Shown here piece by piece: positions 3,230-62,377 of a stretch of 64,000 nt of DNA (position 1 is its first letter; every line of letters starts with the position of its first letter). The notes beneath the pieces are model-generated. The model was not told the DNA's origin. It ran no database searches and saw only the letters and a list, made by a program, of their open reading frames with translations. This stretch comes from Verrucomicrobiia bacterium (GTDB lineage Bacteria > Verrucomicrobiota > Verrucomicrobiia > Limisphaerales > UBA11358), in contig DATNHI010000106.1 in NCBI GenBank assembly GCA_035605035.1, positions 849-64,848 of the forward strand. The letters run 5' to 3'. The translations under genes and the position numbers were made by a program.

Positions 3230-3294
3230 TGTAGGAGACGACGCAAGGAGTCTCACTTTAAAAATATTTGAGCCTCGTTACCTCGGCTCCTACA
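3230..3294. repeat. inverted repeat of the tgtaggag... family, copy 2
   Basis: Arms tgtaggagacgacgcaaggagtctca and tgagcctcgttacctcggctcctaca. Lies between the apgM stop and the pgsA start. Confidence 0.8.
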
Positions 3295-5595: not shown

Positions 5596-6822
5596 GTGAC
5601 TCCGCTGCAATTGCATGAATTTCATCACCGCCTCGGCGCGCGATTTGCGGAAGTGAACGGCGCAGAAGTGGTGAACGATTACGGCGTTTGGCTGGCCGAA
5701 CACGCTGCGCTCCGCGAAAGCGCCGGTGTGATTGATTTGAGTTTTCGTTCGCGAATCTGCCTGGTCGGCAGCGACCGCGTCCGCTTTCTGCACGGACAGG
5801 TCACGAACGACGTGAAACGTTTGCAGGTCGGTGAAGGCTGCTATGCCGCGCTGGTCACGGCCAAAGGCAAAATGGAGAGTGGCCTGAACATTTTCTGCCT
5901 GCCGGACGAACTGCTGCTGGAGTTCGAGCCAGGCCTGACCGGAAAAATTTCGCAACGGCTCGAAAAATTTATCGTCGCCGATGATGTGCAAATTTTGGAT
6001 GCCGCGCCGCAGTACGGCTTGTTGAGCGTGCAAGGGCCAAGGGCGGAAGATGTGGTCCGCGCGACTGGATTGTTTGGGTGGGGCGAGGATCCTGACGGGC
6101 CGGATTCTACGGGCAACCAGCACGGCTCGTCAGGAGCCTCGCCCCACCAATTCCCAACCAAGCCATTCGACTCGGTGAAAATTTCCGATGCGACGCTCGG
6201 CGAAATTTATCTCGCGAATCAGCCGCGTTTTGGAGTGCGGCGACATGTCGCCGCTTTTCAAAGCGCGGACATGTCCACGCACTCCACGATTTCAAGCGGC
6301 TTCGATTTGTTGGTCCCCAACTCATCTCTGGCTGCCGTGGCGGACAAACTCATCGCTGCCGCAAAGTCCGTCGGTGGTCTTGCCTGTGGTTGGCAGGCGT
6401 TCGAGACCGCGCGCATCGAGGCGGGCATTCCGCGCTTCGGCGCGGACATGGACGAAACGAACCTGCCGCTCGAATGCGGCATCGAAAATCAGGCGGTGAG
6501 CTACAACAAAGGCTGTTACATCGGGCAGGAAGTCATCAACCGTGTCCACAGCTTCGGTCATGTCAACCGGGAATTGCGCGGCCTGCGTCTCAGCGACCCC
6601 GCAAGCGCGGGGCTGCCATTACCACAACGCGGTGACAAGCTTTTCCATAACGACAAGGAAATCGGCTACGTCACCAGCGCCGTCAAATCGCCGGTGCTCA
6701 ACGCGGTCATCGTACTCGGTTACGTCCGCCGCGAAGCGAACCAAATCGGGACCGAGTTGTTGCTGCGAACGGCGTCCGGCGAGAGCCCCGCGAAGATTGT
6801 AGAATTGCCGTTTGTGAAATGA
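5596..6822 (+). CDS. GcvT/YgfZ-family folate-binding protein carrying two in-frame palindromic insertions
   Basis: AGVIDLSFRSRICLVGSDRVRFLHGQVTNDV and C-terminal KGCYIGQEVINRV are aminomethyltransferase-fold signatures. About 75 extra residues in the middle. Confidence 0.75.
   Translation: MTPLQLHEFHHRLGARFAEVNGAEVVNDYGVWLAEHAALRESAGVIDLSFRSRICLVGSDRVRFLHGQVTNDVKRLQVGEGCYAALVTAKGKMESGLNIFCLPDELLLEFEPGLTGKISQRLEKFIVADDVQILDAAPQYGLLSVQGPRAEDVVRATGLFGWGEDPDGPDSTGNQHGSSGASPHQFPTKPFDSVKISDATLGEIYLANQPRFGVRRHVAAFQSADMSTHSTISSGFDLLVPNSSLAAVADKLIAAAKSVGGLACGWQAFETARIEAGIPRFGADMDETNLPLECGIENQAVSYNKGCYIGQEVINRVHSFGHVNRELRGLRLSDPASAGLPLPQRGDKLFHNDKEIGYVTSAVKSPVLNAVIVLGYVRREANQIGTELLLRTASGESPAKIVELPFVK
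6079..6146. repeat. inverted repeat inside the ygfZ-like CDS (in frame)
   Basis: Arms tggggcgaggatcctgacg and cgtcaggagcctcgcccca. Translated as GWGEDPDG...GSSGASPH. Confidence 0.8.
6232..6285. repeat. second inverted repeat inside the ygfZ-like CDS (in frame)
   Basis: Arms ggagtgcggcgacatgtcg and ggacatgtccacgcactcc. Translated as GVRRHVAAFQSADMSTHS. Confidence 0.8.
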
Positions 6823-6955
6823 TTTTCGGAGGGACGAGTTACACGAGTCCCTGACTAATCTGCAATCGGAATTCGGGAGTTCGCGAGGATCAGCGTCCAC
6901 TCAACGCCGGCTCGCGGGTACGCTCGCCCCACCAACTGGCGAGGGACTACCCGCC

Positions 6956-8413
6956 TCACCGCTTCAACGCTGAAACTGCGACTTGCTTGCTGACTTTCGC
7001 GAGGCGTTTTTCCCATTCGCCCTTGTGCGCCAACGGGTCGGCGTCCGTGCCCCAGAGTTTCTTGACCATCTCCAATTGCGGCACGAACGGGCATTTGGCC
7101 TTGGGATTTTTGTAAATCTCCTCCATCTCGCGCAACGCGAACTGCGCGCCGGTCATCACCGCCGACGAGCCGAACCGTTCGTTGAGTTGGTGCGCCGCGT
7201 CGTCCAGCGCGCCCCAGCGTTCCGCGTCGGTTTTGCCCCAAAGCGTCGGCTGCGTGTCCAGCCGCGCCAGGTTCCAGAACCCGATGCGGATTTGCCGGAC
7301 CGGTTTGGCCTGGTCGCTCATGATCTTCCGGAAAATATTTTCCAGGACCGCGTTCATGACGGAATTTTGAAATTGTGGTTCGTGAAAACGGTGACCGCCG
7401 CTGACTTCGCTGAAATCGTTGAACCGGATCGTCAGGCCCAGCTCGCGCGCCTGCATTTGCTCGCGGCGCAACTGGCCGACCAGCCGCGTCGCCTCGCTCA
7501 ACGTAAACGTGAGCGCGCCCTCGTAATCCGGCTCGTCGTAAGGCAGCGTCGTGTTGCTGGAAATCGTCGTGCGGTCCTTCACCTGCAACAGCAACGGCTC
7601 GCTCCACAGGCCGTTGGCGAACAGCCAGAGTTGCGTGCCCCAGATGCCGAACTTTTTCCGGAGCAGGGTCGAAGGCAATTTCGCCACGTGCCCGAACGTC
7701 TGCGCGCCCAGCGCCGCCAACGCGCGCTGGCGGTTTTTGCCGATGCCGGAAAGCTCGCGCACGGAACGGTCCTTGAGAAATTCTTTTTCGTCGCCGGGTT
7801 TGATTTCGATGAACCCGGGCTTGGCGGCGTCCGTCGCCAGCTTGGCCAGCCGCGATGAATTGGCCAGACCGGCCGAGACCGGCAATTTTACTTCCCGCGA
7901 AATGCGTTCGCGGATTTCGCCCACGTATTTTTCCGGCGTCGTGTCGCGCCAGACGTGACGGTCCATCGTGGTGAAATCCAGGAAACCTTCGTCAATCGAG
8001 ATGGGAACCAGCGTGGGCGAATATTCCTCGAGGATGCGGAACATCTGCCGCGACAGCTCGCGGTAGTCGTCGTAGTGCGGTTTGCACAGGACGCCGCGCG
8101 GACACAGCCGCGCCGCCTCGAAACACGCCATGCCGGTCGTGATGCCGAATTTCTTGGCCGCGCGATTGGCGGCGATGACGATGCCGTCGCCGCGCCGTCC
8201 GCCGCCGACCCAGACCGGGCGGTCCCGCAATTTGGGATTGCGGGCAATCTCGCAACTGGCGAAGAAACTGTCGCCGTCCACGTGCAGGATGCGAATGGGT
8301 GTGCTCACAACAAGCGCGTTTCGTTGGAGTTCACGCTTCAGCGTGTCTTCATGCCCTAAACAACCTGAAGGTTGAACTCCAACTGTGCGTTGTTCAGGTT
8401 CGCCCAAAACCAT
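6956..8413 (-). CDS. dinB: Y-family DNA polymerase IV
   Basis: ILHVDGDSFFASCE...ISIDEGFLD are Y-family catalytic motifs. A GTG at 8308 (VSTPIRILHVD) is a plausible true start. C-terminal extension relative to typical DinB. Confidence 0.85.
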   Translation of the reverse strand: MVLGEPEQRTVGVQPSGCLGHEDTLKRELQRNALVVSTPIRILHVDGDSFFASCEIARNPKLRDRPVWVGGGRRGDGIVIAANRAAKKFGITTGMACFEAARLCPRGVLCKPHYDDYRELSRQMFRILEEYSPTLVPISIDEGFLDFTTMDRHVWRDTTPEKYVGEIRERISREVKLPVSAGLANSSRLAKLATDAAKPGFIEIKPGDEKEFLKDRSVRELSGIGKNRQRALAALGAQTFGHVAKLPSTLLRKKFGIWGTQLWLFANGLWSEPLLLQVKDRTTISSNTTLPYDEPDYEGALTFTLSEATRLVGQLRREQMQARELGLTIRFNDFSEVSGGHRFHEPQFQNSVMNAVLENIFRKIMSDQAKPVRQIRIGFWNLARLDTQPTLWGKTDAERWGALDDAAHQLNERFGSSAVMTGAQFALREMEEIYKNPKAKCPFVPQLEMVKKLWGTDADPLAHKGEWEKRLAKVSKQVAVSALKR

Positions 8414-8548
8414 ACGCTGTCAATCCTGACTTATGACCTTGGACAAAGGCGGTCCAAGCGGAAATTTTTCATATTCTCATCCTGGAATGGTCGCCGTGCC
8501 GACGACCCTGATTTAGTTGGGACGGCGGCACGCCGTCCCTCCCGGCTT

Positions 8549-9197: not shown

Positions 9198-9486
9198 GCC
9201 GTTACGCTAGCACATTTATGCGTGAATCCAAGAGGAAAAGCGGCGCGCTGGAGCGACACGGGCATTTGCGCAGGAGCGCGGACAGCTTGTCCGCGAGTTG
9301 AATTTGCTGCTTCCATGCATACGCGGGCAGGCTGCCCGCGCTCCGAAATCAAAAGCCCGTCACGGCTGACATCTTTGTAGTCCAATAATCCAGATCAAGC
9401 TAAAGCTCCGTTAGGAGCGGCATCATCGGGAAATCTGCACGGAATATACCGCGCCTGCGAAGTTTCAATCGGCCCTGGCGTTACTG

Positions 9487-9717: not shown

Positions 9718-9886
9718 GATTGGTATAGGGAAACAAACAGCCGTATGCTTAAAAGTCTCAGGGAATCTAACTTGGGATCGCAGATGATTCCCCATCCGGT
9801 GCGGGCCTAAACAGCGGCCTTGCACCCGCCGATGTCATAAGTGAAATTTTCTCGCCCGCGAATCCTTTTGCGGATTTAATCTCCCT

Positions 9887-10978
9887 GTGAAACAAAAGGC
9901 TTATGCCCGGGCGGGCGTGGATATTGATTTGGGCAACCGGGTCAAATCCACCCTGCCGCAACTGCTCGCCGCCACGCATCGCCGTGAGGTGCTCGGCAAA
10001 GTCGGCGGCTTCGGTGGTTTGTTCGCGCTCGACCTCAAGAAATACCGCGAGCCGGTCCTCGTATCGTCCGTGGACGGCGTCGGCACCAAGCTCAAAATCG
10101 CCTTCGCCATGGACCGGCACGACACCATCGGCGCCGACCTCGTGAACCATTGCGTGAACGACATCGCCGTGCTGGGCGCCGAGCCGCTGTTCTTCCTGGA
10201 TTATCTCGGCACGGGCAAACTCGAGCCGCACGTTTTCACCGAAATCATCAAGGGCTTCGCGCGCGCGTGCTCCGAAAACCATTGCGCACTCATCGGTGGC
10301 GAGACGGCGCAGATGCCTGGCTTTTACCAGAAAGGCGAATACGACGTGAGCGGCACCATCGTCGGCGTCGTCGAAAAAAGCAAAATGCTCAACGGCCAGA
10401 AAACTGTGCGCGTCGGCGATGCGGTCGTTGGCATCGCGTCCAGCGGCTTGCACACGAACGGCTATTCGCTCGCCCGGAAAATCTTTTTCGAGCAATTGAA
10501 ATTGAAACCCACCAGCCGCGTGCCGGGACTGAAAGGCACGATTGGTTACGAACTGCTGAAAGTCCATGTAAGCTACGGGCCGTTGGTGCAAAAGTTAATT
10601 GCAAAGTTCAACAACGTAGCGCAGACGTCTCGTCTGCACAGCAAAAGCAGGCGGGACGCCTGCGCTACTATCAAAGCCTTCGCCCACATCACCGGCGGCG
10701 GGTTTGTGGACAACATCCCGCGCGTTCTCCCGAAAAATTGCGACGTCGTCATCCACAAAGGTTCGTGGGACATGCTGCCGATTTTCGAAATCATCGAAGC
10801 CAAAGGTGGTGTGCCGGAAACCGAGCTTTATCAGGTGTTCAACATGGGCATCGGCATTGTGGCGATTGTGTCGGCGGCCAAGGCAGGCGCGATTTTGAAA
10901 TTCATCCGCAGCCAGAAGCACCGGGCGTGGCTCATTGGCGAAGTGGTGAAGGGCCAAGGCCAGGCGCGGGTGATTTGA
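9887..10978 (+). CDS. purM: phosphoribosylformylglycinamidine cyclo-ligase (AIR synthetase) with an in-frame palindromic insertion
   Basis: AYARAGVDIDLGN...GGFGGLFAL...DGVGTKL...AHITGGGFVDNIPRVLP. GTG start. Confidence 0.9.
   Translation: MKQKAYARAGVDIDLGNRVKSTLPQLLAATHRREVLGKVGGFGGLFALDLKKYREPVLVSSVDGVGTKLKIAFAMDRHDTIGADLVNHCVNDIAVLGAEPLFFLDYLGTGKLEPHVFTEIIKGFARACSENHCALIGGETAQMPGFYQKGEYDVSGTIVGVVEKSKMLNGQKTVRVGDAVVGIASSGLHTNGYSLARKIFFEQLKLKPTSRVPGLKGTIGYELLKVHVSYGPLVQKLIAKFNNVAQTSRLHSKSRRDACATIKAFAHITGGGFVDNIPRVLPKNCDVVIHKGSWDMLPIFEIIEAKGGVPETELYQVFNMGIGIVAIVSAAKAGAILKFIRSQKHRAWLIGEVVKGQGQARVI
10621..10662. repeat. two small GC hairpins inside the purM CDS (in frame)
   Basis: gcagacg-tct-cgtctgc and caggcg-gga-cgcctg. 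Translated as QTSRLHSKSRRDACAT, just before the conserved AHITGGG. Confidence 0.8.
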
Positions 10979-10981
10979 AAG

Positions 10982-11503
10982 ATGATATTGCGGACACCGT
11001 ATCGCTCAAGTCGCCCGTCAATTGACATGCTGGCAGTCAATTGGGCTGTCTTCAGTTTCGTGATGATGGTGGTTTTTGTCATTGGACTTGCGCTGCCGCA
11101 GCAATTCATAAAATTTGCAGTCTCCTTTCCGACAGGATTCATTCTGGCCGGTATTTTTGCGATCAGCTTGCACAGCCTCATAATCTTTCTTTTGTCGCGG
11201 TCCAAAAAACTGCGAACCGCTGCCGCATACACCGATGGAAGGGCGGTCAAAATATTGGAGTACACCGTATCAGCGGTCTGCTGGGTTTTATATTCTTTGT
11301 TGTGGTGGTATGGCGCGCTTGAAGCGACAGCGATTTTTCTTTTCGTTCCAACCTACTTTGTGACGTCGTTAGTAGTTTATCATGTCTGCTTCAACTACTT
11401 CGCGCGCGACGAAATCAACAAAAAGACTCTGTGGGTGTTGGTGGGAAATATCTGGACCCTCGGCCACTACGCCTTGATCTTTTTGAAGGTTCTCAAACCA
11501 TAG
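10982..11503 (+). CDS. hypothetical multi-pass membrane protein (cargo behind purM)
   Basis: 173-aa ORF with several hydrophobic segments. AT-richer than flanks. Starts 3 nt after the purM stop. Confidence 0.55.
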   Translation: MILRTPYRSSRPSIDMLAVNWAVFSFVMMVVFVIGLALPQQFIKFAVSFPTGFILAGIFAISLHSLIIFLLSRSKKLRTAAAYTDGRAVKILEYTVSAVCWVLYSLLWWYGALEATAIFLFVPTYFVTSLVVYHVCFNYFARDEINKKTLWVLVGNIWTLGHYALIFLKVLKP

Positions 11504-11585: not shown

Positions 11586-11755
11586 GCCCGAAGTCCGAAT
11601 ACCGAAATCCGACCCGTCCTCCGTAGCAGCACTGCGGAGGGTGGAAAGAAATCCGAATTGCGAAATCCGATCAAGTGAGGCGAGCACTCACGAGCATTTC
11701 GGGCTTCGGGTTTCGGCCTTCTTTTGGAATTCGGATTTCGGGCTTCGGATTTATC
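11586..11755. repeat. composite heptad-periodic inverted repeat (atccgaa / ttcggat units) with a nested cctccgtagcag..ctgcggagg hairpin
   Basis: Left side cccgaagtccgaataccgaaatccga...atccgaattgcgaaatccga. Right side cttcgggtttcgg...ggaattcggatttcgggcttcggattt. Confidence 0.8.
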
Positions 11756-12787
11756 TCAGTAACTCATCCGGTCCAGCTTCACCTTGCCGCGGAAAATCCA
11801 GTAGATGCAGACGGTGTAGGCAATCACCAGCGGCACGCCGATGCACGCGATGATGAGCATAATCTCCAACGTCTTCGGCGAGGACGCGGCGTTGATAATC
11901 GTCAGGCTGTTTTCCGGGTTCGGTTGGCTGAAGACGAGATTCGGATATTGGTCCAGGCCAAACAACGCCATCAGCGTAATCATCGTCGCGCACGATGACA
12001 GGAACGCCTTCCAGTCGCGGCCGTGGTAAAATTCGCGCGGGATGTTGGCGATGGCGAGCATGTTCGCCAGCGCGATGCTGAACAACCAGGGATTTTCCCG
12101 CACGCGCGCCGCCATGTGCGGAACGTAGAGCAGTGTGGCCATCGTCGTGATGGCAGCGCAGATCACGAAGAAAATGATGCTGTTCATCGCCCAGCCGCGC
12201 AATTTGTCGTGGAGCGGGCCTTCGGTTTTCATCAGGCCGTAAATCGCGCCGTGCATCATGAACAACGCGACGGTCGTAACACCGAGCAGCAACGGATACG
12301 GTTTGAGCAAACCCAAAAACGTCCCGGCGAATTCGCCGTTTTTGTCAATCGGAACGCCCCAGGCGATGTTGCCCATCGCTACACCGATGAGCAACGCTGA
12401 CACAAGGCTGCCGGCAGAAAAGCCGATGTCCCACATCTGTCGCCACCAGCGCATCGGTTGTTTGCTGCGGAATTCGATGGCCACGGCGCGAAAGATCAGC
12501 GCCACCAGCAGCAGGACGAAAGCCAGATAAAAACCGGAGAACACCGTGGCATAAACGTTCGGAAACGCGGCGAAGAGCGCGCCGCCGCCGGTGACCAGCC
12601 AGACTTCGTTGCCGTCCCAGACAGGCCCGATGGCATTGAGCAACGTGCGCCGTTCCATATCATCCTTCGTGAACAGGTGGAGCGCGCCGATGCCGAGATC
12701 AAAGCCGTCGAGCATCGCGTAGCCGGTAAACAGCACCCCGACGAGGATGAACCAAGTAGTATTCAGATCAAAATTGGCAGAGTTCAT
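11756..12787 (-). CDS. cydB: cytochrome bd ubiquinol oxidase subunit II
   Basis: MNSANFDLNTTWFILVGVLFTGYAMLDGFDLG is a typical CydB N-terminus. ORF track start 12868 reads through the repeat (SDFGIRISDF) and is rejected. Confidence 0.85.
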   Translation of the reverse strand: MNSANFDLNTTWFILVGVLFTGYAMLDGFDLGIGALHLFTKDDMERRTLLNAIGPVWDGNEVWLVTGGGALFAAFPNVYATVFSGFYLAFVLLLVALIFRAVAIEFRSKQPMRWWRQMWDIGFSAGSLVSALLIGVAMGNIAWGVPIDKNGEFAGTFLGLLKPYPLLLGVTTVALFMMHGAIYGLMKTEGPLHDKLRGWAMNSIIFFVICAAITTMATLLYVPHMAARVRENPWLFSIALANMLAIANIPREFYHGRDWKAFLSSCATMITLMALFGLDQYPNLVFSQPNPENSLTIINAASSPKTLEIMLIIACIGVPLVIAYTVCIYWIFRGKVKLDRMSY

Positions 12788-12965
12788 GGGTGGCAGGAAA
12801 TCCGAAATCCGAATGCCGAAATCCGAAAGAAATCCGAATACCGAATTCCAAAAAAGCGCGGCGCACAATCACTGGCATTCCGGGTTTCGGATTTCGGGCT
12901 TCTTTCGGGTTTCGGATTTCGAGCCTCGGATTTTGGGCATCGGGTTTCGGATTTTGAGTTCATGG
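12788..12965. repeat. heptad-periodic inverted repeat filling the cydA-cydB spacer
   Basis: aatccgaaatccgaatgccgaaatccgaaagaaatccgaataccgaa ... ggtttcggatttcgggcttctttcgggtttcggatttcgagcctcggattttgggcatcgggtttcggatttt. Confidence 0.85.
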
Positions 12966-19362: not shown

Positions 19363-20988
19363 TTATTGACGTTTTGGAAAATCCCGGCCATCCACAACCG
19401 TCGGCGTCACAAACATCAAGAGGCTTTTTGGCCCAGCCGGCATATTTGTGGATCCAGGCATCCATCCATCGTCGGCCATTTCTGTTGCCATGACAACCGT
19501 CTGGCCGGGAGATAATGTCACTTGATTTGTTAATTGAATTGTCTGCACGTCCGGCTGCGAAGGATCGCCGGTCAATTGGTTTAATTTCGCTCCGAGATTC
19601 AAATTAAAAGTAGAGGAGTTGGTTGAAAAATAGGGCTTCACATCCAGGTTGACGCCGATATTCGTGTAATTCACGCTGGCATTCGCGTTTGTGCCCTCGG
19701 CGGAAAGCACGGGAAACGCCTTGGTCACGGAAATTTGAGCTTGTTCTCCATTGATGGTAACTATTCGCGGTGCGCTGATGACATTGGCGTCACTAGCCCC
19801 TTGCAACGCTTCATTGATGACCTTGAATTGCTGTCCGGTCAGTAAGCCGGTTTTTACACCGTGCGCGTCCGACTTCCACCCAACTCCAAGAACTTGCAAA
19901 TTTTCGGTGGGAAGAGAAACAAATTGTGCCCTCAAGAGAATCTGAATCTTTTCCACTTCCGGCACACTGTTCGTCTCCGTTTGCGCCGCGACCGGTAAAG
20001 CATTTTGCTGCCGCCTCAATTGCGTCATTTCGCCGCGCAATCTCAGAAGTTCCGTCTCGTTGGCGCGCAATTGTTTGTTTTCCTGTTGAAGTGACGCCAG
20101 TTGATTTGTCGCCTCGTCACGCTCCTGTTGCAATTGCTGGATTTGTTCGGTCAACGTCGTTTGTTTTTGACGCAGTGAATGAATTTGGTTTTGCAGTTGA
20201 AACGCATAAATGGTCGCACCAACAGCGGCGGCACCCAAGATGATGAAGAGTGTTTTTTGGATTGTGGTCATGGCGATGGCTTTGGTGGCGGCAATTACGG
20301 CTGAAGTGTGAACAGCGGCTCCGGCCAGAACAGCGGCGGTTGAAATGCTCGCAGCCAGCCCAACCGGCGCGGCTTGAACGGCGTTGGCGGAAATCAAAAC
20401 CGCGAGTCCGCTCGCGCCGATGGTCACGCTGCGTTTCGAGAAAAATTCGCGCAATCGTTCGACCGCTCGGCTGACGCGCTTTTGCGCGGCGCCTTCGGAC
20501 GCGCCCAAAACTTCACCGACTTCGCGCAGATTTTTGTTTTCAAAATAGCGGAGCAGAATCGCGCTGCGGTCAGCATCGTCAAGCGTGTCCATGGCTTCGT
20601 CGAGCAGCGGCTCGATTTCGAACCAGACAGGCGGGACGCCTGTGCCACTTTCGGTCGCATTCATATTGTTCATCTCCACGGCGATTTGCTCGCGCAATTG
20701 GCGGCGCGATTCCTTTCGGATTACGTCAATCGCGGTTCGGCGCGTGACGGCGTAAAGCCACGGCGTCAGGGAACTGACAGGCGGGACGCCCGTGCCACCA
20801 ATCTTGCCGGCGTCGCGCGCCAGATCGGCGAAGACGGATTGCGAAACTTCCTCAGCCAGTTGCGGTGAGCGGACTTGCCGCAACGCGGCGGAATGAACCA
20901 GATCCAGGTGCCGCCTGACAATTTCGGCGAAGGCGTCCTGTGAATTTTCCCGCGTGTATTGCCGTAGCAAATCCAAATCGCTTGTCAT
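19363..20988 (-). CDS. ECF sigma domain / TM / coiled-coil / secretin-like fusion protein (paralog B)
   Basis: Start chosen at MTSDLDLLRQYTRENSQDAFAEIVRRHLDLVHSAALRQV (ATG at 20988). The segment VSRAVERLREFFSKRSVTIGASGLAVLISANAVQAAPVGLAASIS is near identical to paralog A. C-terminus VISAPRIVTINGEQAQISVTKAFPV...IGVNLDVKPYF...LLMFVTPTVV is secretin-like. Confidence 0.75.
   Translation of the reverse strand: MTSDLDLLRQYTRENSQDAFAEIVRRHLDLVHSAALRQVRSPQLAEEVSQSVFADLARDAGKIGGTGVPPVSSLTPWLYAVTRRTAIDVIRKESRRQLREQIAVEMNNMNATESGTGVPPVWFEIEPLLDEAMDTLDDADRSAILLRYFENKNLREVGEVLGASEGAAQKRVSRAVERLREFFSKRSVTIGASGLAVLISANAVQAAPVGLAASISTAAVLAGAAVHTSAVIAATKAIAMTTIQKTLFIILGAAAVGATIYAFQLQNQIHSLRQKQTTLTEQIQQLQQERDEATNQLASLQQENKQLRANETELLRLRGEMTQLRRQQNALPVAAQTETNSVPEVEKIQILLRAQFVSLPTENLQVLGVGWKSDAHGVKTGLLTGQQFKVINEALQGASDANVISAPRIVTINGEQAQISVTKAFPVLSAEGTNANASVNYTNIGVNLDVKPYFSTNSSTFNLNLGAKLNQLTGDPSQPDVQTIQLTNQVTLSPGQTVVMATEMADDGWMPGSTNMPAGPKSLLMFVTPTVVDGRDFPKRQ
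20627..20793. repeat. two copies of the acaggcgggacgcc(t/c)gt hairpin inside paralog B (in frame)
   Basis: 20627-20643 and 20777-20793. Translated on the minus strand as ...SGTGVPPV... and ...GGTGVPPV.... Paralogs A and C lack them at the aligned positions. Confidence 0.8.
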
Positions 20989-21177
20989 GCTTTTGAAAGT
21001 ATATCGCCGCCGGACGACGAAATCCGACACAATTTCCCCGGTTGAATCCAGGCTCGACGGAGGCTTCCACCCTCCGTAGCAGAGCAACTGCGGAGGACGG
21101 GCGCCCCACCACTTTTCCCGGCGGCCGTGCGCAAGCATCTTTACTTTCGCCGTTTTGTCGCGCATTGTGGAGGCAGC

Positions 21178-33471: not shown

Positions 33472-34185
33472 ATGCAAGAATTTTCCCCGCTCGACGGCGC
33501 CATCCTCATAGACAAGCCTGCCGGCCCGACCTCGCACGACGTGGTGGACGCCATCCGCCGCAAGTTCAGCATCAAAAAAGTCGGCCATTGCGGCACGCTT
33601 GACCCGAACGCCACCGGTTTGCTCATCATCGTGCTTGGGCGCGGGACGAAGCTTTCGGAAAAACTGATGGGCGACGACAAGGTTTATGAAGGCGTCATCC
33701 AATTCGGCGTGGCCACCGACAGCTACGATGCCGACGGCGAAATCATCGAAACAAAACCGGTTCCGCCGCTGACCGCGGAGCAGTTGAATGAAGCTGCTGC
33801 CGTGTTTATCGGCGACTTGATGCAAACGCCACCGATGGTTTCAGCCATCAAAAAAGACGGCGTGCCGCTCTACAAACTGGCGCGCCAGGGCATCGAGGTC
33901 GCACGCGAACCGCGGCTGGTTCACATTTACAATTTTCGTTTCAGGAATTACGAGCCGCCGCTCGGCCAATTTCGCATTGCCTGCACCAAAGGCACTTACG
34001 TCCGCAGTATCGCGCACGAACTCGGCCAGAAACTCGGCTGCGGCGCGCACCTGGCCGCGTTGCGGCGGGTGACTTCGGGAAAATTTGACGTGGCCGACGC
34101 AACGAGGCTGGATGACGTTCTCAAATTGACGGCCACCGAATTGGAGAAAAAGGTGATTCCGTTTCTGAAATTGGCAGCGACATGA
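33472..34185 (+). CDS. truB: tRNA pseudouridine(55) synthase
   Basis: ILIDKPAGPTSHDVV...GHCGTLDPNATGLL. Confidence 0.9.
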   Translation: MQEFSPLDGAILIDKPAGPTSHDVVDAIRRKFSIKKVGHCGTLDPNATGLLIIVLGRGTKLSEKLMGDDKVYEGVIQFGVATDSYDADGEIIETKPVPPLTAEQLNEAAAVFIGDLMQTPPMVSAIKKDGVPLYKLARQGIEVAREPRLVHIYNFRFRNYEPPLGQFRIACTKGTYVRSIAHELGQKLGCGAHLAALRRVTSGKFDVADATRLDDVLKLTATELEKKVIPFLKLAAT

Positions 34186-34322
34186 AAGCTCCAAGCACCA
34201 AGCGCCAATCTCCAGAGAAGCGCCAAATTCCGAACTCCAGGAAGTCTGACGGCAACGAGCGCGTTGTTTGGAATTTGAAGTTTGGAATTTCTCTGGTGCT
34301 TGGTGCTTGAATGTTGGAGCTT
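34186..34322. repeat. heptad-periodic inverted repeat in the truB-ribF spacer
   Basis: agctccaagcaccaagcgccaatctccagagaa ... ttctctggtgcttggtgcttgaatgttggagct, followed by a T-run. Confidence 0.8.
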
Positions 34323-37419: not shown

Positions 37420-37516
37420 CATTTACGATTTACGATTTTTGATTTACGATTTGCCGGTGCGCGCAAGTTGGCAAGGAGCGCGTAAATCGTAAATCGTGAA
37501 TCGTATATCGTAAATC
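37420..37516. repeat. heptad-periodic inverted repeat (atttacg units) downstream of rpoD, probable terminator-like structure
   Basis: atttacgatttacgatttttgatttacgattt ... gcgtaaatcgtaaatcgtgaatcgtatatcgtaaat. Confidence 0.8.
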
Positions 37517-41893: not shown

Positions 41894-42097
41894 ACATGAG
41901 GGGGTAGCCTTCGCTTCCGGCGAGTTCCTTTCACCGCTTTCCCAAGCGGTTCAAATCTCCCCGGAGCGGAGAAGAAATTTGTTTTGTGGAACGTTTTCCC
42001 CAAGGTGGCTCGGTTTGAGCCAGACGGGCCACCTCGCAACCTTGGGCTGTTTTCTTCTGCTCCGTTGGAGCATCAGGCGGGACGCCCGTGCTACTTT

Positions 42098-42760
42098 TCA
42101 TTTGCCAGCCAGACTGTCAAGCGCGAAGTTCAATGTCATGATGTTCACGCGCGGCTCGCCGAAAACGCCGAGGTCGCGGCCATTCGTGTTTTGTTGAACG
42201 AGTTCGCGGACGCGTGCTTCCGACAGGCCGCGCGCCCTGGCCACGCGCGGAACCTGCAACTCCGCGTTGGCCACGCTGATGTGCGGGTCAAGGCCGCTGC
42301 CGGAAGCGGTTGCGGCATCGGCGGGAACGATGGCATTGGTTGCGAGGCCGTTGTCGGAACGGCAGGTGGCAATGTTCTGCGTGACGTTGGCGACCAGATT
42401 GGATGAGGTCGGGCCGAGATTGCTGCCGCCGGAATGCGTCGCGTCAAAATTGTTCACGCTCACCGCAGATGTTGGATCGCCTGCGCTCGCCGCCGACGGA
42501 CGCGGATGAAAATATTGCGCGCCGGTGAAATTTTGCGCAAGCATTGCCGAGCCGCGCACCCCGCCGGAACGGTCATGCAGCAAACTGCCGTTGGCCTGGT
42601 TCGGGAACAGCAATTGCGACACTCCAAAAACAACGAGTGGATAGAGACCGCACAAAATGACGGCGAAAAAAAGTGTCGCCACCAGCGACCGGCCGAATTC
42701 AGTCAAAATGGTTTTCATAAATTTTTTGCAGGAGACGACGTGAGGAGTCTCATTTTTCAA
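42098..42760 (-). CDS. kdpC: K+-transporting ATPase subunit C
   Basis: Typical KdpC: TM helix then ...GSNLGPTS...SGSGLDPHIS...NFALD. Likely start 42718 (MKTILTEF). Confidence 0.9.
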   Translation of the reverse strand: MKNETPHVVSCKKFMKTILTEFGRSLVATLFFAVILCGLYPLVVFGVSQLLFPNQANGSLLHDRSGGVRGSAMLAQNFTGAQYFHPRPSAASAGDPTSAVSVNNFDATHSGGSNLGPTSSNLVANVTQNIATCRSDNGLATNAIVPADAATASGSGLDPHISVANAELQVPRVARARGLSEARVRELVQQNTNGRDLGVFGEPRVNIMTLNFALDSLAGK

Positions 42761-42789
42761 ATTTGCGCCTCGTTACCTCGGCTGCTACG
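42727..42789. repeat. inverted repeat of the tgtaggag... family, copy 3, in the kdpB-kdpC spacer
   Basis: Arms tgcaggagacgacgtgaggagtctca and tgcgcctcgttacctcggctgctacg. Confidence 0.75.
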
Positions 42790-42799
42790 GTTTCAGTTT

Positions 42800-48693: not shown

Positions 48694-49126
48694 TTGGAAG
48701 GGCTGTAAGCCGAATTCTGTCTTCACCCTTGCGGATGGAGAGAACCATTTGTCTCAGCAGCCGATACCCGGAACCCGTCCCGCGTTGGCGGGACCGGAGC
48801 GGGCCGCTCCGGAGTTCCCTATTTGGCCTTGCACCCGATGGGGTTTTCCGTGCCGCGTCGCTTGCGCTTCGCGCGGTGGTCTCTTACACCACCTTTTCAC
48901 CCTTGCCCCTCTGAAATTTCAAATTTCAAATTTGAGATTCCAAAGCGGCGGTCTGTTTTCTGTGGCACTGTCCGTCGGGACGGCTCGCGCCGCCGCCGCC
49001 CGCGTGTATCCTCTGAAATCTCAAATCCGAAATTTGAAATTCCAAAAGGTTACGCGGCATCGCGCCCTTTGGTGTTCGGACTTTCCTCTGCCGGCTCGCG
49101 CCGGCGGCGATTCTCCGCCCTTCCAA
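48694..49126 (-). ncRNA. rnpB: RNase P RNA, bacterial type A
   Basis: Minus-strand GGAAGGGCGGAGAAUCGCC...CAGAGGAAAGUCCGAACACCAAAGGGCGCGAUGCCGCGUAAC...CAGUGCCACAGAAAACAGACCGCC...AAGGGUGAAAAGGUGGUGUAAGAGACCACC...GCAAGGCCAAAUAGGGAAC...GACAGAAUUCGGCUUACAGCCCUUCC. P1 closes with GGAAGGGC/GCCCUUCC. Confidence 0.9.
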
Positions 49127-56079: not shown

Positions 56080-56871
56080 GTGAACGCCATGAAGACGAAA
56101 TCTCGAATGTCGAATGCCCAATGCCGGACTGAAAAGCGAGGCCGTCGCGATTTTGTCATTCGTCATTCGACATTCGACATTCGTGCCTTCACCCTCATCG
56201 AACTGCTCACCGTCATGGCCATCATCGCCGCGCTGGCGGCGTTCCTGTTCCCCGTGGTGGGGCGCATCAAGCGGCAGCAATACATCAAGAACGCGACGGC
56301 GGAAATGGAACAGTTGGAGACGGCCCTTGACCGCTACAAGGCCGCCTACGGCTTCTACCCGCCGGACAATCCATGCAACCCCTTGGTCAACCAGCTCTAC
56401 TTTGAACTGTTGGGAACGACCAATTTGGCTGTTCCTCCTGCCGCGCCGTTCTATCAATCGCTTGACGACCCCACCGTGCAACTCAAGCAATCCGACTTTG
56501 CCAATGCTTTCGGCACCATGGCCGGGAACAATTGCGTGAGCGGTTTTATGAATTGCAGCAAGCCCGGTTCGAGCGAGGACACGCCCAAGGCCCAAAACTT
56601 CCTGCCCAATTTGAGACCCAACCAGACCACCCTCTACAGTAACAACCTTGTCGGGTTAAAATTGATCATCACTTCCGTCAAAGGGCCGGACGTGACGTAC
56701 AAGCCGCTGGGCCTCGGCGCGCCCGACATCAATCCCTGGCGCTACAATTCGTCGAGCCCGACGAACAATCCCGGCGCCTATGACCTGTGGGTCCAACTGG
56801 TAATCAGCGGGAAAACGAATCTCATCTGCAATTGGAACAAGCAAGTGCAATTGAACAGCCCGCTGCCCTGA
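56080..56871 (+). CDS. GspG-like pseudopilin (prepilin-type N-terminal domain)
   Basis: AFTLIELLTVMAIIAALAAFLFPV then AEMEQLETALDRYKAAYGFYPPDN. True start uncertain (GTG 56080, ATG 56089 or ATG 56107); all lie in or before the repeat. Confidence 0.75.
   Translation: MNAMKTKSRMSNAQCRTEKRGRRDFVIRHSTFDIRAFTLIELLTVMAIIAALAAFLFPVVGRIKRQQYIKNATAEMEQLETALDRYKAAYGFYPPDNPCNPLVNQLYFELLGTTNLAVPPAAPFYQSLDDPTVQLKQSDFANAFGTMAGNNCVSGFMNCSKPGSSEDTPKAQNFLPNLRPNQTTLYSNNLVGLKLIITSVKGPDVTYKPLGLGAPDINPWRYNSSSPTNNPGAYDLWVQLVISGKTNLICNWNKQVQLNSPLP
56098..56185. repeat. heptad-periodic inverted repeat (cgaatgt / acattcg units) covering the pseudopilin leader region
   Basis: aaatctcgaatgtcgaatgcccaatgccgg ... ttgtcattcgtcattcgacattcgacattcgtg. 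Confidence 0.8.
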
Positions 56872-62283: not shown

Positions 62284-62377
62284 AATTTACGATTTACGAT
62301 TTACGATTTACGATTGGGGAAAAATCGGCAAAGGCCGCTTCCTTCAATCATCAATCATCAATCATCAATCGTAAATC
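62284..62377. repeat. heptad-periodic repeat (atttacg x4 ... aatcatc x3, aatcgtaaatc)
   Basis: aatttacgatttacgatttacgatttacgatt ... caatcatcaatcatcaatcatcaatcgtaaatc. Confidence 0.8.

Follow-up and report, generated by a model that had tools for sequence, protein, structure and literature searches.

How a conserved gene comes to carry palindromic DNA within its reading frame is the question raised by a 64-kb stretch of DNA (the window) from a soil Verrucomicrobium of the Limisphaerales, in which a gene for a GcvT-fold, folate-binding protein of the COG0354/YgfZ type holds two inverted repeats. A sequence-only reading of this stretch had noted both repeats, in frame and free of stop codons, inside the ygfZ-like gene; we find them within 1-2 nt of the positions given there and refer to them as element 1 and element 2 (Table 1). 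Our best explanation, to which we assign a probability of roughly 0.8, is that these are two separately inserted, non-autonomous elements of the REP (repetitive extragenic palindrome) or REPIN (REP doublet forming a hairpin) type, each lodged in a loop beside the same β-hairpin of the protein.

Two insertions and the β-hairpin between them

The host gene is conserved and its product is readily classified. A Pfam scan returns GCV_T (7e-41, in two stretches) and GCV_T_C (8e-16), the closest solved structures are the GcvT aminomethyltransferases 1yx2 and 1woo, and a Foldseek comparison of the predicted fold gives a TM-score of 0.91 (target-normalised) to 1yx2 and of 0.79 to E. coli YgfZ (1vly); these are the domains and the fold of a COG0354/YgfZ-type protein. 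Homologues number more than 5000, many of them labelled 'folate-binding protein YgfZ' by JGI, and a few named ones come from Verrucomicrobiae or Limisphaerales metagenome-assembled genomes. Residues 305-316 carry the motif KGCYIGQEVINR, which we take to be the COG0354/YgfZ signature K-G-C-[YF]-x-G-Q-E-x3-[RK] (reportedly defined by Waller et al. 2010, PNAS), and K305, G306, C307, Y308, G310, Q311, E312 and R316 show no variation in a 141-sequence alignment. Nucleotide diversity in the conserved core is 0.14/0.10/0.38 at codon positions 1/2/3 among 15 orthologues, a third-position excess from which we judge this to be a working protein-coding gene under purifying selection.

An alignment of the host protein with its 120 closest homologues (121 rows, 365-448 aa) confines the length-variable columns to two sites flanking aa 193-213, a block with 100% column occupancy. 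The single insertion of about 75 aa that the sequence-only reading had proposed is therefore replaced by two, of 23 and 19 codons, with this native block between them. Insertion 1 spans roughly aa 161-183, a net gain of 69 nt over empty orthologues, and element 1 is read as G-W-G-E-D-P-D-G-P...G-S-S-G-A-S-P-H (aa 161-184); insertion 2 spans roughly aa 214-232, a net gain of 57 nt, and element 2 is read as G-V-R-R-H-V-A-A-F-Q-S-A-D-M-S-T-H-S (aa 213-230). The junctions can be read directly at the DNA level, with site 1 passing from an empty 'TTC ACA GAA ATT CCC' to a filled 'TTC GGGTGGGGCGAG...CTCGCCCCACCAGCTT CCA', and site 2 from 'CTC GGC ACG AGC GGA' to 'CTT GGAGTGCGG...CGCACTCCAAATTTTCCGAT GGC'. 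Junction peptides such as GLFGWGEDPDGPDSTGNQHGSSGASPHQFPTK would result from translation of the inserts.

That these segments were inserted, as had been supposed, is borne out by relatives free of the repeats, which do not contain the same residues. Both sites are empty in the close orthologues P0079, P0117 and P0120, with other close orthologues filled at site 1 or site 2 alone; they are likewise empty in distant Verrucomicrobiota (L005-L010 and L013-L020) and in orthologues from Myxococcota, Acidobacteriota, Poribacteria, Nitrospirota, Methylomirabilota and other phyla. The element 1 segment is a gap in all 30 other rows of a cross-phylum alignment, and a profile search finds both sites empty in 115 of 117 orthologues. 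Since the sites are empty in distant orthologues, we take the empty state to be ancestral. By tblastn the reading frame stays open through more than 100 orthologous loci, each gene being spanned by one stop-free alignment with the exception of L003, and it is these single-frame alignments that constitute the evidence for frame retention, as insert lengths divisible by three follow from the codon-wise extraction. The L003 orthologue changes frame near its C-terminus (about 11065-11101, two tblastn pieces in frames 2 and 1), which could be a sequencing error or another insertion.

An AlphaFold2 model computed from the 141-sequence alignment (mean pLDDT 87.8, pTM 0.88; an earlier model from 32 close homologues, pLDDT 52, was discarded) predicts coil for both insert segments: helix 150-156 precedes and strand 193-198 follows the first, and the second links strands 202-208 and 234-241. 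In this model the two inserts flank one β-hairpin of a GcvT-fold protein, formed by strands 193-198 and 202-208, with block-mean pLDDT values of 94-96 over aa 191-210. The lowest ten-residue means fall at aa 161-180 (58 and 49) and aa 211-230 (62 and 51), values below 50 occur solely at aa 176-180 and aa 218-222, and a C-terminal stretch, aa 311-320, dips to 66. The question raised earlier, whether the inserted residues form a surface loop, can thus be answered in the affirmative as far as loop character goes, and their exposure would follow from the coil state and the low pLDDT.

Both elements are inverted dimers that fold strongly as single-stranded DNA. Element 1 consists of two 26-nt arms, 92% complementary, around a 20-nt spacer, with GTGG at 6078-6081 and CCAC at 6144-6147, and folds at -32.7 kcal/mol (z = -7.5; 0/200 shuffles fold as well); two inverted units with a less conserved spacer make up a REPIN-like architecture. 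Its left arm is unusual, encoding EDPDGP rather than the ERPREP of the usual arm, GAGCGTCCCCGCGAGCC, in orthologues. The arms of element 2 (6231-6257 and 6260-6286) are 27 nt long, 85% complementary and separated by 2 nt, and each contains an 18-nt palindrome of its own (GCGGCGACATGTCGCCGC at 6237-6254 and 6263-6280), so that its units of about 27 nt have the form of the short, imperfectly palindromic 20-40 bp units of REPs. Element 2 folds at -23.3 kcal/mol (z = -5.4), again with 0/200 shuffles folding as well.

Turnover of repeat families at the two loops

We took the insert DNA from about 100 orthologous loci and assigned it by motif and inspection to families lettered A to L, element 1 belonging to family A and element 2 to family D. 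The following counts are from 200 non-identical orthologues, a set in which filled alleles are over- or under-represented according to the query used. Site 1 is empty in 85 and holds A in 73, B in 27 and C in 15; site 2 is empty in 55 and holds G in 29, D in 22, E in 20, F in 19 and H in 18, with A (13), J (10), I (9), K (3) and L (2) less common. Three distinct families thus occur at site 1 and ten at site 2. The 80 distinct insert DNAs mostly form hairpins (z about -3 to -10) and the families share one design, two inverted units whose outer ends carry a four-nucleotide tag. Families C, F, G and J have GTAG there, family A has GTGG, and B, D, E, I and K have GGAG.

The loops also bear traces of nesting, deletion and replacement. 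Nested palindromes lie inside some A and C copies, the 'empty-like' site of L103 is a scar, GCCGGGAGCGCCGGC, that is a remnant of family E, L097 also has a deletion scar, L120 retains the left arm of A alone and has lost the native loop, and family C takes the place of the native EIPAKPFDS. Orthologue pairs with 94-97% identical cores differ at site 2 in 14 of 21 cases and at site 1 in 8 of 21. Unrelated cassettes are found even in genes about 97% identical. L080 (family D) and L118 (family J) share 1068 of 1149 aligned nucleotides, and in the stretch inspected their differences are concentrated in the cassette, which is bounded by 'CGN CTY G' and 'GGC TTC GAT'. The argument for turnover rests on the distinct-family numbers and on the near-identical pairs; parsimony counts on a neighbour-joining tree (53 and 82 changes) are not used as event numbers, a tree of such close sequences being unreliable. 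At site 2 the insertion points that fit best cover about 10 nt (loop positions 17-27). This spread, with no target duplication seen, speaks against insertion at an exact target.

That so many families meet at two places invites a second explanation, in which REP or REPIN elements home to both loops by way of a resident palindrome or local DNA structure, so that diverse families enter, nest inside and displace each other within the same handful of coding nucleotides through site-specific exchange. The ten families at site 2 and three at site 1, the copies nested inside A and C elements, the near-identical genes whose differences are confined to unrelated cassettes, and arms that look younger than core third codon positions would all be expected of such a landing pad. 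Some insertion sequences are known to target REPs, and REPs cluster in mosaics. The neighbouring genes at the same loci show no cassette-sized insertion in apgM (60 orthologues), a CHASE3 gene (23) or dinB (10), all of which align at near-constant length; apgM, however, is more conserved and may simply tolerate less. Against homing, the site-2 insertion points are spread rather than fixed at one nucleotide, and the loop residues can evidently be replaced or deleted (family C, L120, L103, L097), which makes high tolerance demonstrable. Taken together, the scars, the replacements and the spread of insertion points favour frequent REP insertion into loops of very high tolerance, and we regard homing as possible, though doubtful. 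If true, it would be an undescribed cassette exchange of RAYT-type elements (RAYT, REP-associated tyrosine transposase) that gives a cytosolic enzyme two hypervariable loops, and the target recognised by REPINs would then be a resident palindrome or a local DNA structure.

Minor insertion sites occur elsewhere in the protein family. Peptides of the 'LVAPK(R/Q)SEGG' type follow aa 217 (14/200 orthologues) and aa 328 (15/200) in P0079 numbering, and one orthologue carries 'TTLRSIVTEDG' after aa 20; mapped to the window, the minor sites correspond roughly to aa 259-260 and aa 370, and the gene in the window is empty at all three.

Constraint, dispersed copies and known relatives

Family-A arms vary by 0.10/0.11/0.09 and 0.10/0.20/0.15 per site at codon positions 1/2/3 in 15 orthologous copies, that is, within 0.09-0.20, below core third positions (0.38) and with no third-position excess, whereas no part of the gene varies more than the family-A spacer (0.59/0.56/0.48). 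In families D, E, G, H, F and B the arms are nearly invariant, with variation located in the spacers and junctions. We read this pattern as that of inserts lacking protein-level constraint, whose arms would either postdate the gene lineages, having been inserted repeatedly from a conserved pool, or be homogenised against other copies.

The same low arm diversity could be taken as a sign that the host keeps the hairpins or their peptides, as a signal for mRNA processing or stability, a transcription pause or a functional loop. Both strands fold strongly, and REPs in transcripts can stabilise mRNA according to the literature. We think a host function unlikely nevertheless, as presence and absence differ among close relatives, unrelated families replace each other, both sites are empty in nearly all orthologues of the profile search, and the spacers and peptides appear unconstrained. 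Pairing in 16 orthologous A copies stands at 85.1%, compared with 85.5% in shuffled controls, with 2 pairs changed on both sides; as covariation does not rise above shuffles, we make no claim of selection on the hairpin. An Rfam scan gives no family at threshold, only sub-threshold look-alikes of miRNA hairpins, and a promoter and terminator scan gives nothing above shuffles.

Copies outside the gene were sought with up to 3 mismatches in 1.1 Mb of related DNA and in 0.97 Mb from other phyla as an outgroup. The related DNA contains units of A (6), D (4), E (1), F (6), G (8), J1 (5) and J2 (9) outside the gene, and the outgroup contains none of any of these families. Family A is found at site 1, at site 2 and in the spacer downstream of the host gene, where its solitary unit in the window (Table 1) is followed by another REP-like unit at about 6937-6960, and where L091, L092 and L094 have a tight A-type dimer at the corresponding place. 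A D-type dimer with a GTAG tag lies inside a 311-aa ORF (open reading frame) of L102. Two RAYT-like genes were found among the related loci (Table 1): that of L132 has J-type dimers on both sides, J being the family that fills site 2 in 10 orthologues, and that of L135 lies between REP dimers of another family that also occupies site 2 in other genomes, the ...STAGRMPAAT type of P0096.

These copies bear on whether the palindromes could have arisen in place, by local inverted duplication or replication slippage, rather than from imported units. The left arm of element 1, which pairs with its own right arm better than the family-A consensus does, could reflect templating within the element; yet the same units recur at 6908-6933, in downstream spacers, in other ORFs and at both sites of the gene, unrelated families of the same tag-plus-stem design occupy the same loops, and J-type units flank a RAYT-like gene, all of which makes an origin in place very improbable. 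Mis-assembly, or a decaying gene that has accumulated repeats, may be set aside as negligible, since beyond the general tendency of repeats to confuse assemblers nothing speaks for it, contigs from two independent JGI samples encode the identical 408-aa protein, in each case as a single called gene (which makes mis-assembly unlikely), and the gene combines in-frame passage through more than 100 loci with third-position excess and a confident AlphaFold2 fold.

The separate insertion of two REP- or REPIN-type elements remains our preferred explanation. The elements would be copied in as single-stranded hairpins by RAYTs, selection would keep solely those copies that are a multiple of three in length, stop-free and situated in a tolerant loop, and the inserts would be translated into floppy loops of 23 and 19 residues without a role for the host. 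Arm conservation would stem from processes at the level of the element, either insertion, recent or repeated, out of a conserved genomic pool or else conversion against other copies, and insertion, nesting, imprecise deletion and replacement would recur at both loops.

Several observations weigh against this explanation. Comparison of empty and filled DNA defines neither a target-site duplication nor exact element ends, and the 26-nt unit of element 1 lacks self-complementarity on inspection of its sequence, so that folding requires the inverted pair. The tag of element 2 is GGAG instead of GTAG and falls outside the published variants. Many dispersed copies would be expected of a REP family, but the window holds just one further unit of A (6908-6933) and no second copy of D, for which 1.1 Mb of relatives adds only four units outside the gene. 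D peptides in the other two reading frames (40-aa query) give one weak match in a database of 5.8 billion proteins, which shows merely that D is not common in ORF space. A tblastn search finds no RAYT in the 64-kb window, and no RAYT flanked by A or D is found among the related loci. Arm conservation could also reflect DNA or RNA structure selected by the host, and both the translation of the inserts and their neutrality are things that we infer rather than measure.

By their architecture the elements look like GTAG-type REPs and REPINs, their closest known kin, with strict membership incomplete. In-frame GTAG-type REPs have been reported in Opitutus terrae in some 70 copies, as single units or as inverted dimers in housekeeping genes, the dimers encoding 20-30 aa; most GTAG-20 units there carry GTGG, published tag variants include GYAG, GTRG and GTGG, some dimers have spacers of 1-2 bp, a genome may hold several families, some genes are hit twice, and RPE-4 and RPE-6 of Rickettsia are classed as CGTC-tagged (Di Nocera et al. 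2013, BMC Genomics 14:522, PMC3733652). The resemblance lies in the phylum, in tagged inverted dimers in frame, and in the GTGG variant tag. Unlike that system, the host here belongs to the Limisphaerales, and the portions of the O. terrae peptide table on which we draw include neither the A nor the D peptides; no YgfZ or GcvT-family host gene is listed for O. terrae, and the study, which deals with single genomes, contains nothing on turnover at one site across orthologues. In-frame REPs in Verrucomicrobia being already published, the basic phenomenon is known. A limited literature search found no description of multi-family turnover at two loops, which is no proof of novelty.

The sequence-only reading had likened the repeats to Rickettsia palindromic elements (RPEs), here in a different lineage. 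RPE-1 to RPE-8 were reportedly described by Ogata et al. in 2000 and 2002. The likeness holds insofar as palindromes have entered a functional gene in frame, as RPEs do, whose encoded segments are solvent-exposed in host proteins that function (exposure of the present inserts is suggested by coil state and low pLDDT); the novelty of the lineage was overstated, given the in-frame REPs already described in Verrucomicrobia. The elements do not belong to the RPEs by sequence, being set apart by size, lineage and end tag, without a consensus alignment: they are 56 and 72 nt long, come from Verrucomicrobiota and end in GTGG or GGAG, whereas RPEs measure 100-150 bp and are alphaproteobacterial. The pattern differs as well, as every Rickettsia orthologue has its insert at the same locus, which was read as common origin (R. 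japonica genome paper, PMC3767692), whereas in the present series genes that are nearly identical may be empty at a site or hold unrelated families there.

REPINs are mobilised by RAYTs (Bertels & Rainey 2011, PMC3116915; Bertels et al., bioRxiv 10.1101/2021.07.10.451892). The elements share with them the inverted REP pair and the less conserved spacer, and the RAYT-like genes of L132 and L135 are flanked by REPs. A cognate RAYT is a single-copy Y1 transposase gene flanked by the same REPs, and we find none for A or D; REPINs are, moreover, almost exclusively extragenic and about 100 nt long, unlike the intragenic elements of 56-72 nt described here. The enterobacterial ERIC and YPAL repeats are said, in a review by Delihas, to be small non-autonomous repeats found between and inside genes; they are larger, of terminal-inverted-repeat type and gammaproteobacterial.

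Other palindromes in the window and what the loops may teach

Table 1. Positions of the host gene, its two elements and further repeat features; numbers refer to the window unless a locus is named.
Feature	Position	Strand	Details
Host gene, GcvT-fold COG0354/YgfZ-type folate-binding protein	5596..6822	+	408 aa, GTG start; ORF list
Element 1, family A, inverted dimer of two 26-nt units	6077..6148	+	outer ends GTGG...CCAC
Element 1 left arm	6077..6102	+	inverted-repeat search
Element 1 spacer (hairpin loop), 20 nt	6103..6122	+	inverted-repeat search, folding
Element 1 right arm	6123..6148	+	inverted-repeat search
Native block between insertions, aa 193-213, SVKISDATLGEIYLANQPRFG	6172..6234	+	β-hairpin in model; part of no insertion
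Element 2, family D, inverted dimer of two ~27-nt units	6231..6286	+	outer ends GGAG...CTCC
Solitary family-A unit, GGTGGGGCGAGCGTACCCGCGAGCCG	6908..6933	-	spacer between convergent host gene and dinB-like gene
RAYT-like gene	L135 7653-8300 (within 7560-8470)		Pfam Y1_Tnp 27.5 bits, cut-off 23
RAYT-like gene	L132 620-1093 (within 505-1165)		homologous to L135 ORF
Solitary REP units, 'GTGG CACGGGCG TCC CGCCTGTC'	20776-20796, 20626-20646	-	in frame, gene 19369-20976 (-)
GTAG-tagged unit, GTAG CGCAGGCG TCC CGCCTGC	about 10640-10665	-	inside purM 9845-10975 (+)
Further REP-like units	2535-2620, 3268-3290, 42760-42790, 42065-42090, 9324-9345, 21040-21110		families seen in orthologue inserts
Long hairpins	11644-11757, 12792-12936, 34180-34314, 37421-37516, 48907-49049, 56089-56198, 62285-62377		short tandem motifs

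The window contains three further in-frame REPs, one in purM and two in a gene for an ECF (extracytoplasmic function) sigma factor fused to a secretin-like domain. Both units in the sigma factor gene are read as GTGVPPV, a peptide that is also listed for GTAG-19 REPs in the O. terrae table; placed from the protein sequence, one lies within the Sigma70_r2 match and the other in the linker between r2 and r4. The purM unit belongs to the same family and is read as ...SRRDACAT... inside AIR synthetase, where the best solved PurM structure, 2z01, shows an 18-residue gap, which points to another in-frame, repeat-bearing insertion. Of the REP-like sites in the window, which number about 12 when roughly counted, 5 fall inside genes.

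Most of the further REP-like units seem, on inspection of the ORFs, to be intergenic or close to gene ends. Their types include a G/F-like GTAGGAGCCGAGGTAACGAGGCTCA (a dimer and two singles), a fourth V unit and an E-like unit, and a further GTGG unit adjoins 'GCTACGGAGGGTGGAAGCCTCCGT'. The long hairpins form a palindromic class distinct from the REP-like units; they are built from short tandem motifs (GAAATCCGAA..., ATTTACGATTTACG... and AATTTCAAATTTGA...), with the two halves as inverted copies, and most seem to lie outside clear long ORFs. Two sets of 14-mers, each repeated three times at kilobase spacing (18590, 20381 and 24933; 15764, 17436 and 19340), probably mark paralogous genes, for example several ECF sigma or anti-sigma types, rather than REPs. 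A hairpin 'GTTGGAGTTCACGCTTCAGCGTGT...ACAACCTGAAGGTTGAACTCCAAC' at 8323-8383 lies in the N-terminal extension of the dinB-like ORF (6956-8413, minus strand), probably upstream of the true start, and the annotated product of 485 aa may be longer than the real one.

Nowhere does selfish DNA write new protein sequence more clearly than in palindromic repeats that lie in frame. A single case is ordinary for this phylum; it is the orthologue series that is unusual, offering dozens of natural replicates at two loops of one well-folded protein: sites without an insert, sites filled by about a dozen families, copies nested in others, scars, and exchanges between genes about 97% identical. Such replicates make testable how REPs and REPINs choose their targets, how fast they turn over and whether the insertions benefit proteins at all. 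They also hold a warning for annotators and for structure prediction, as length variation in conserved proteins of Limisphaerales-like bacteria is often repeat-encoded, as seen for ygfZ, purM and an ECF sigma factor gene within one 64-kb window.

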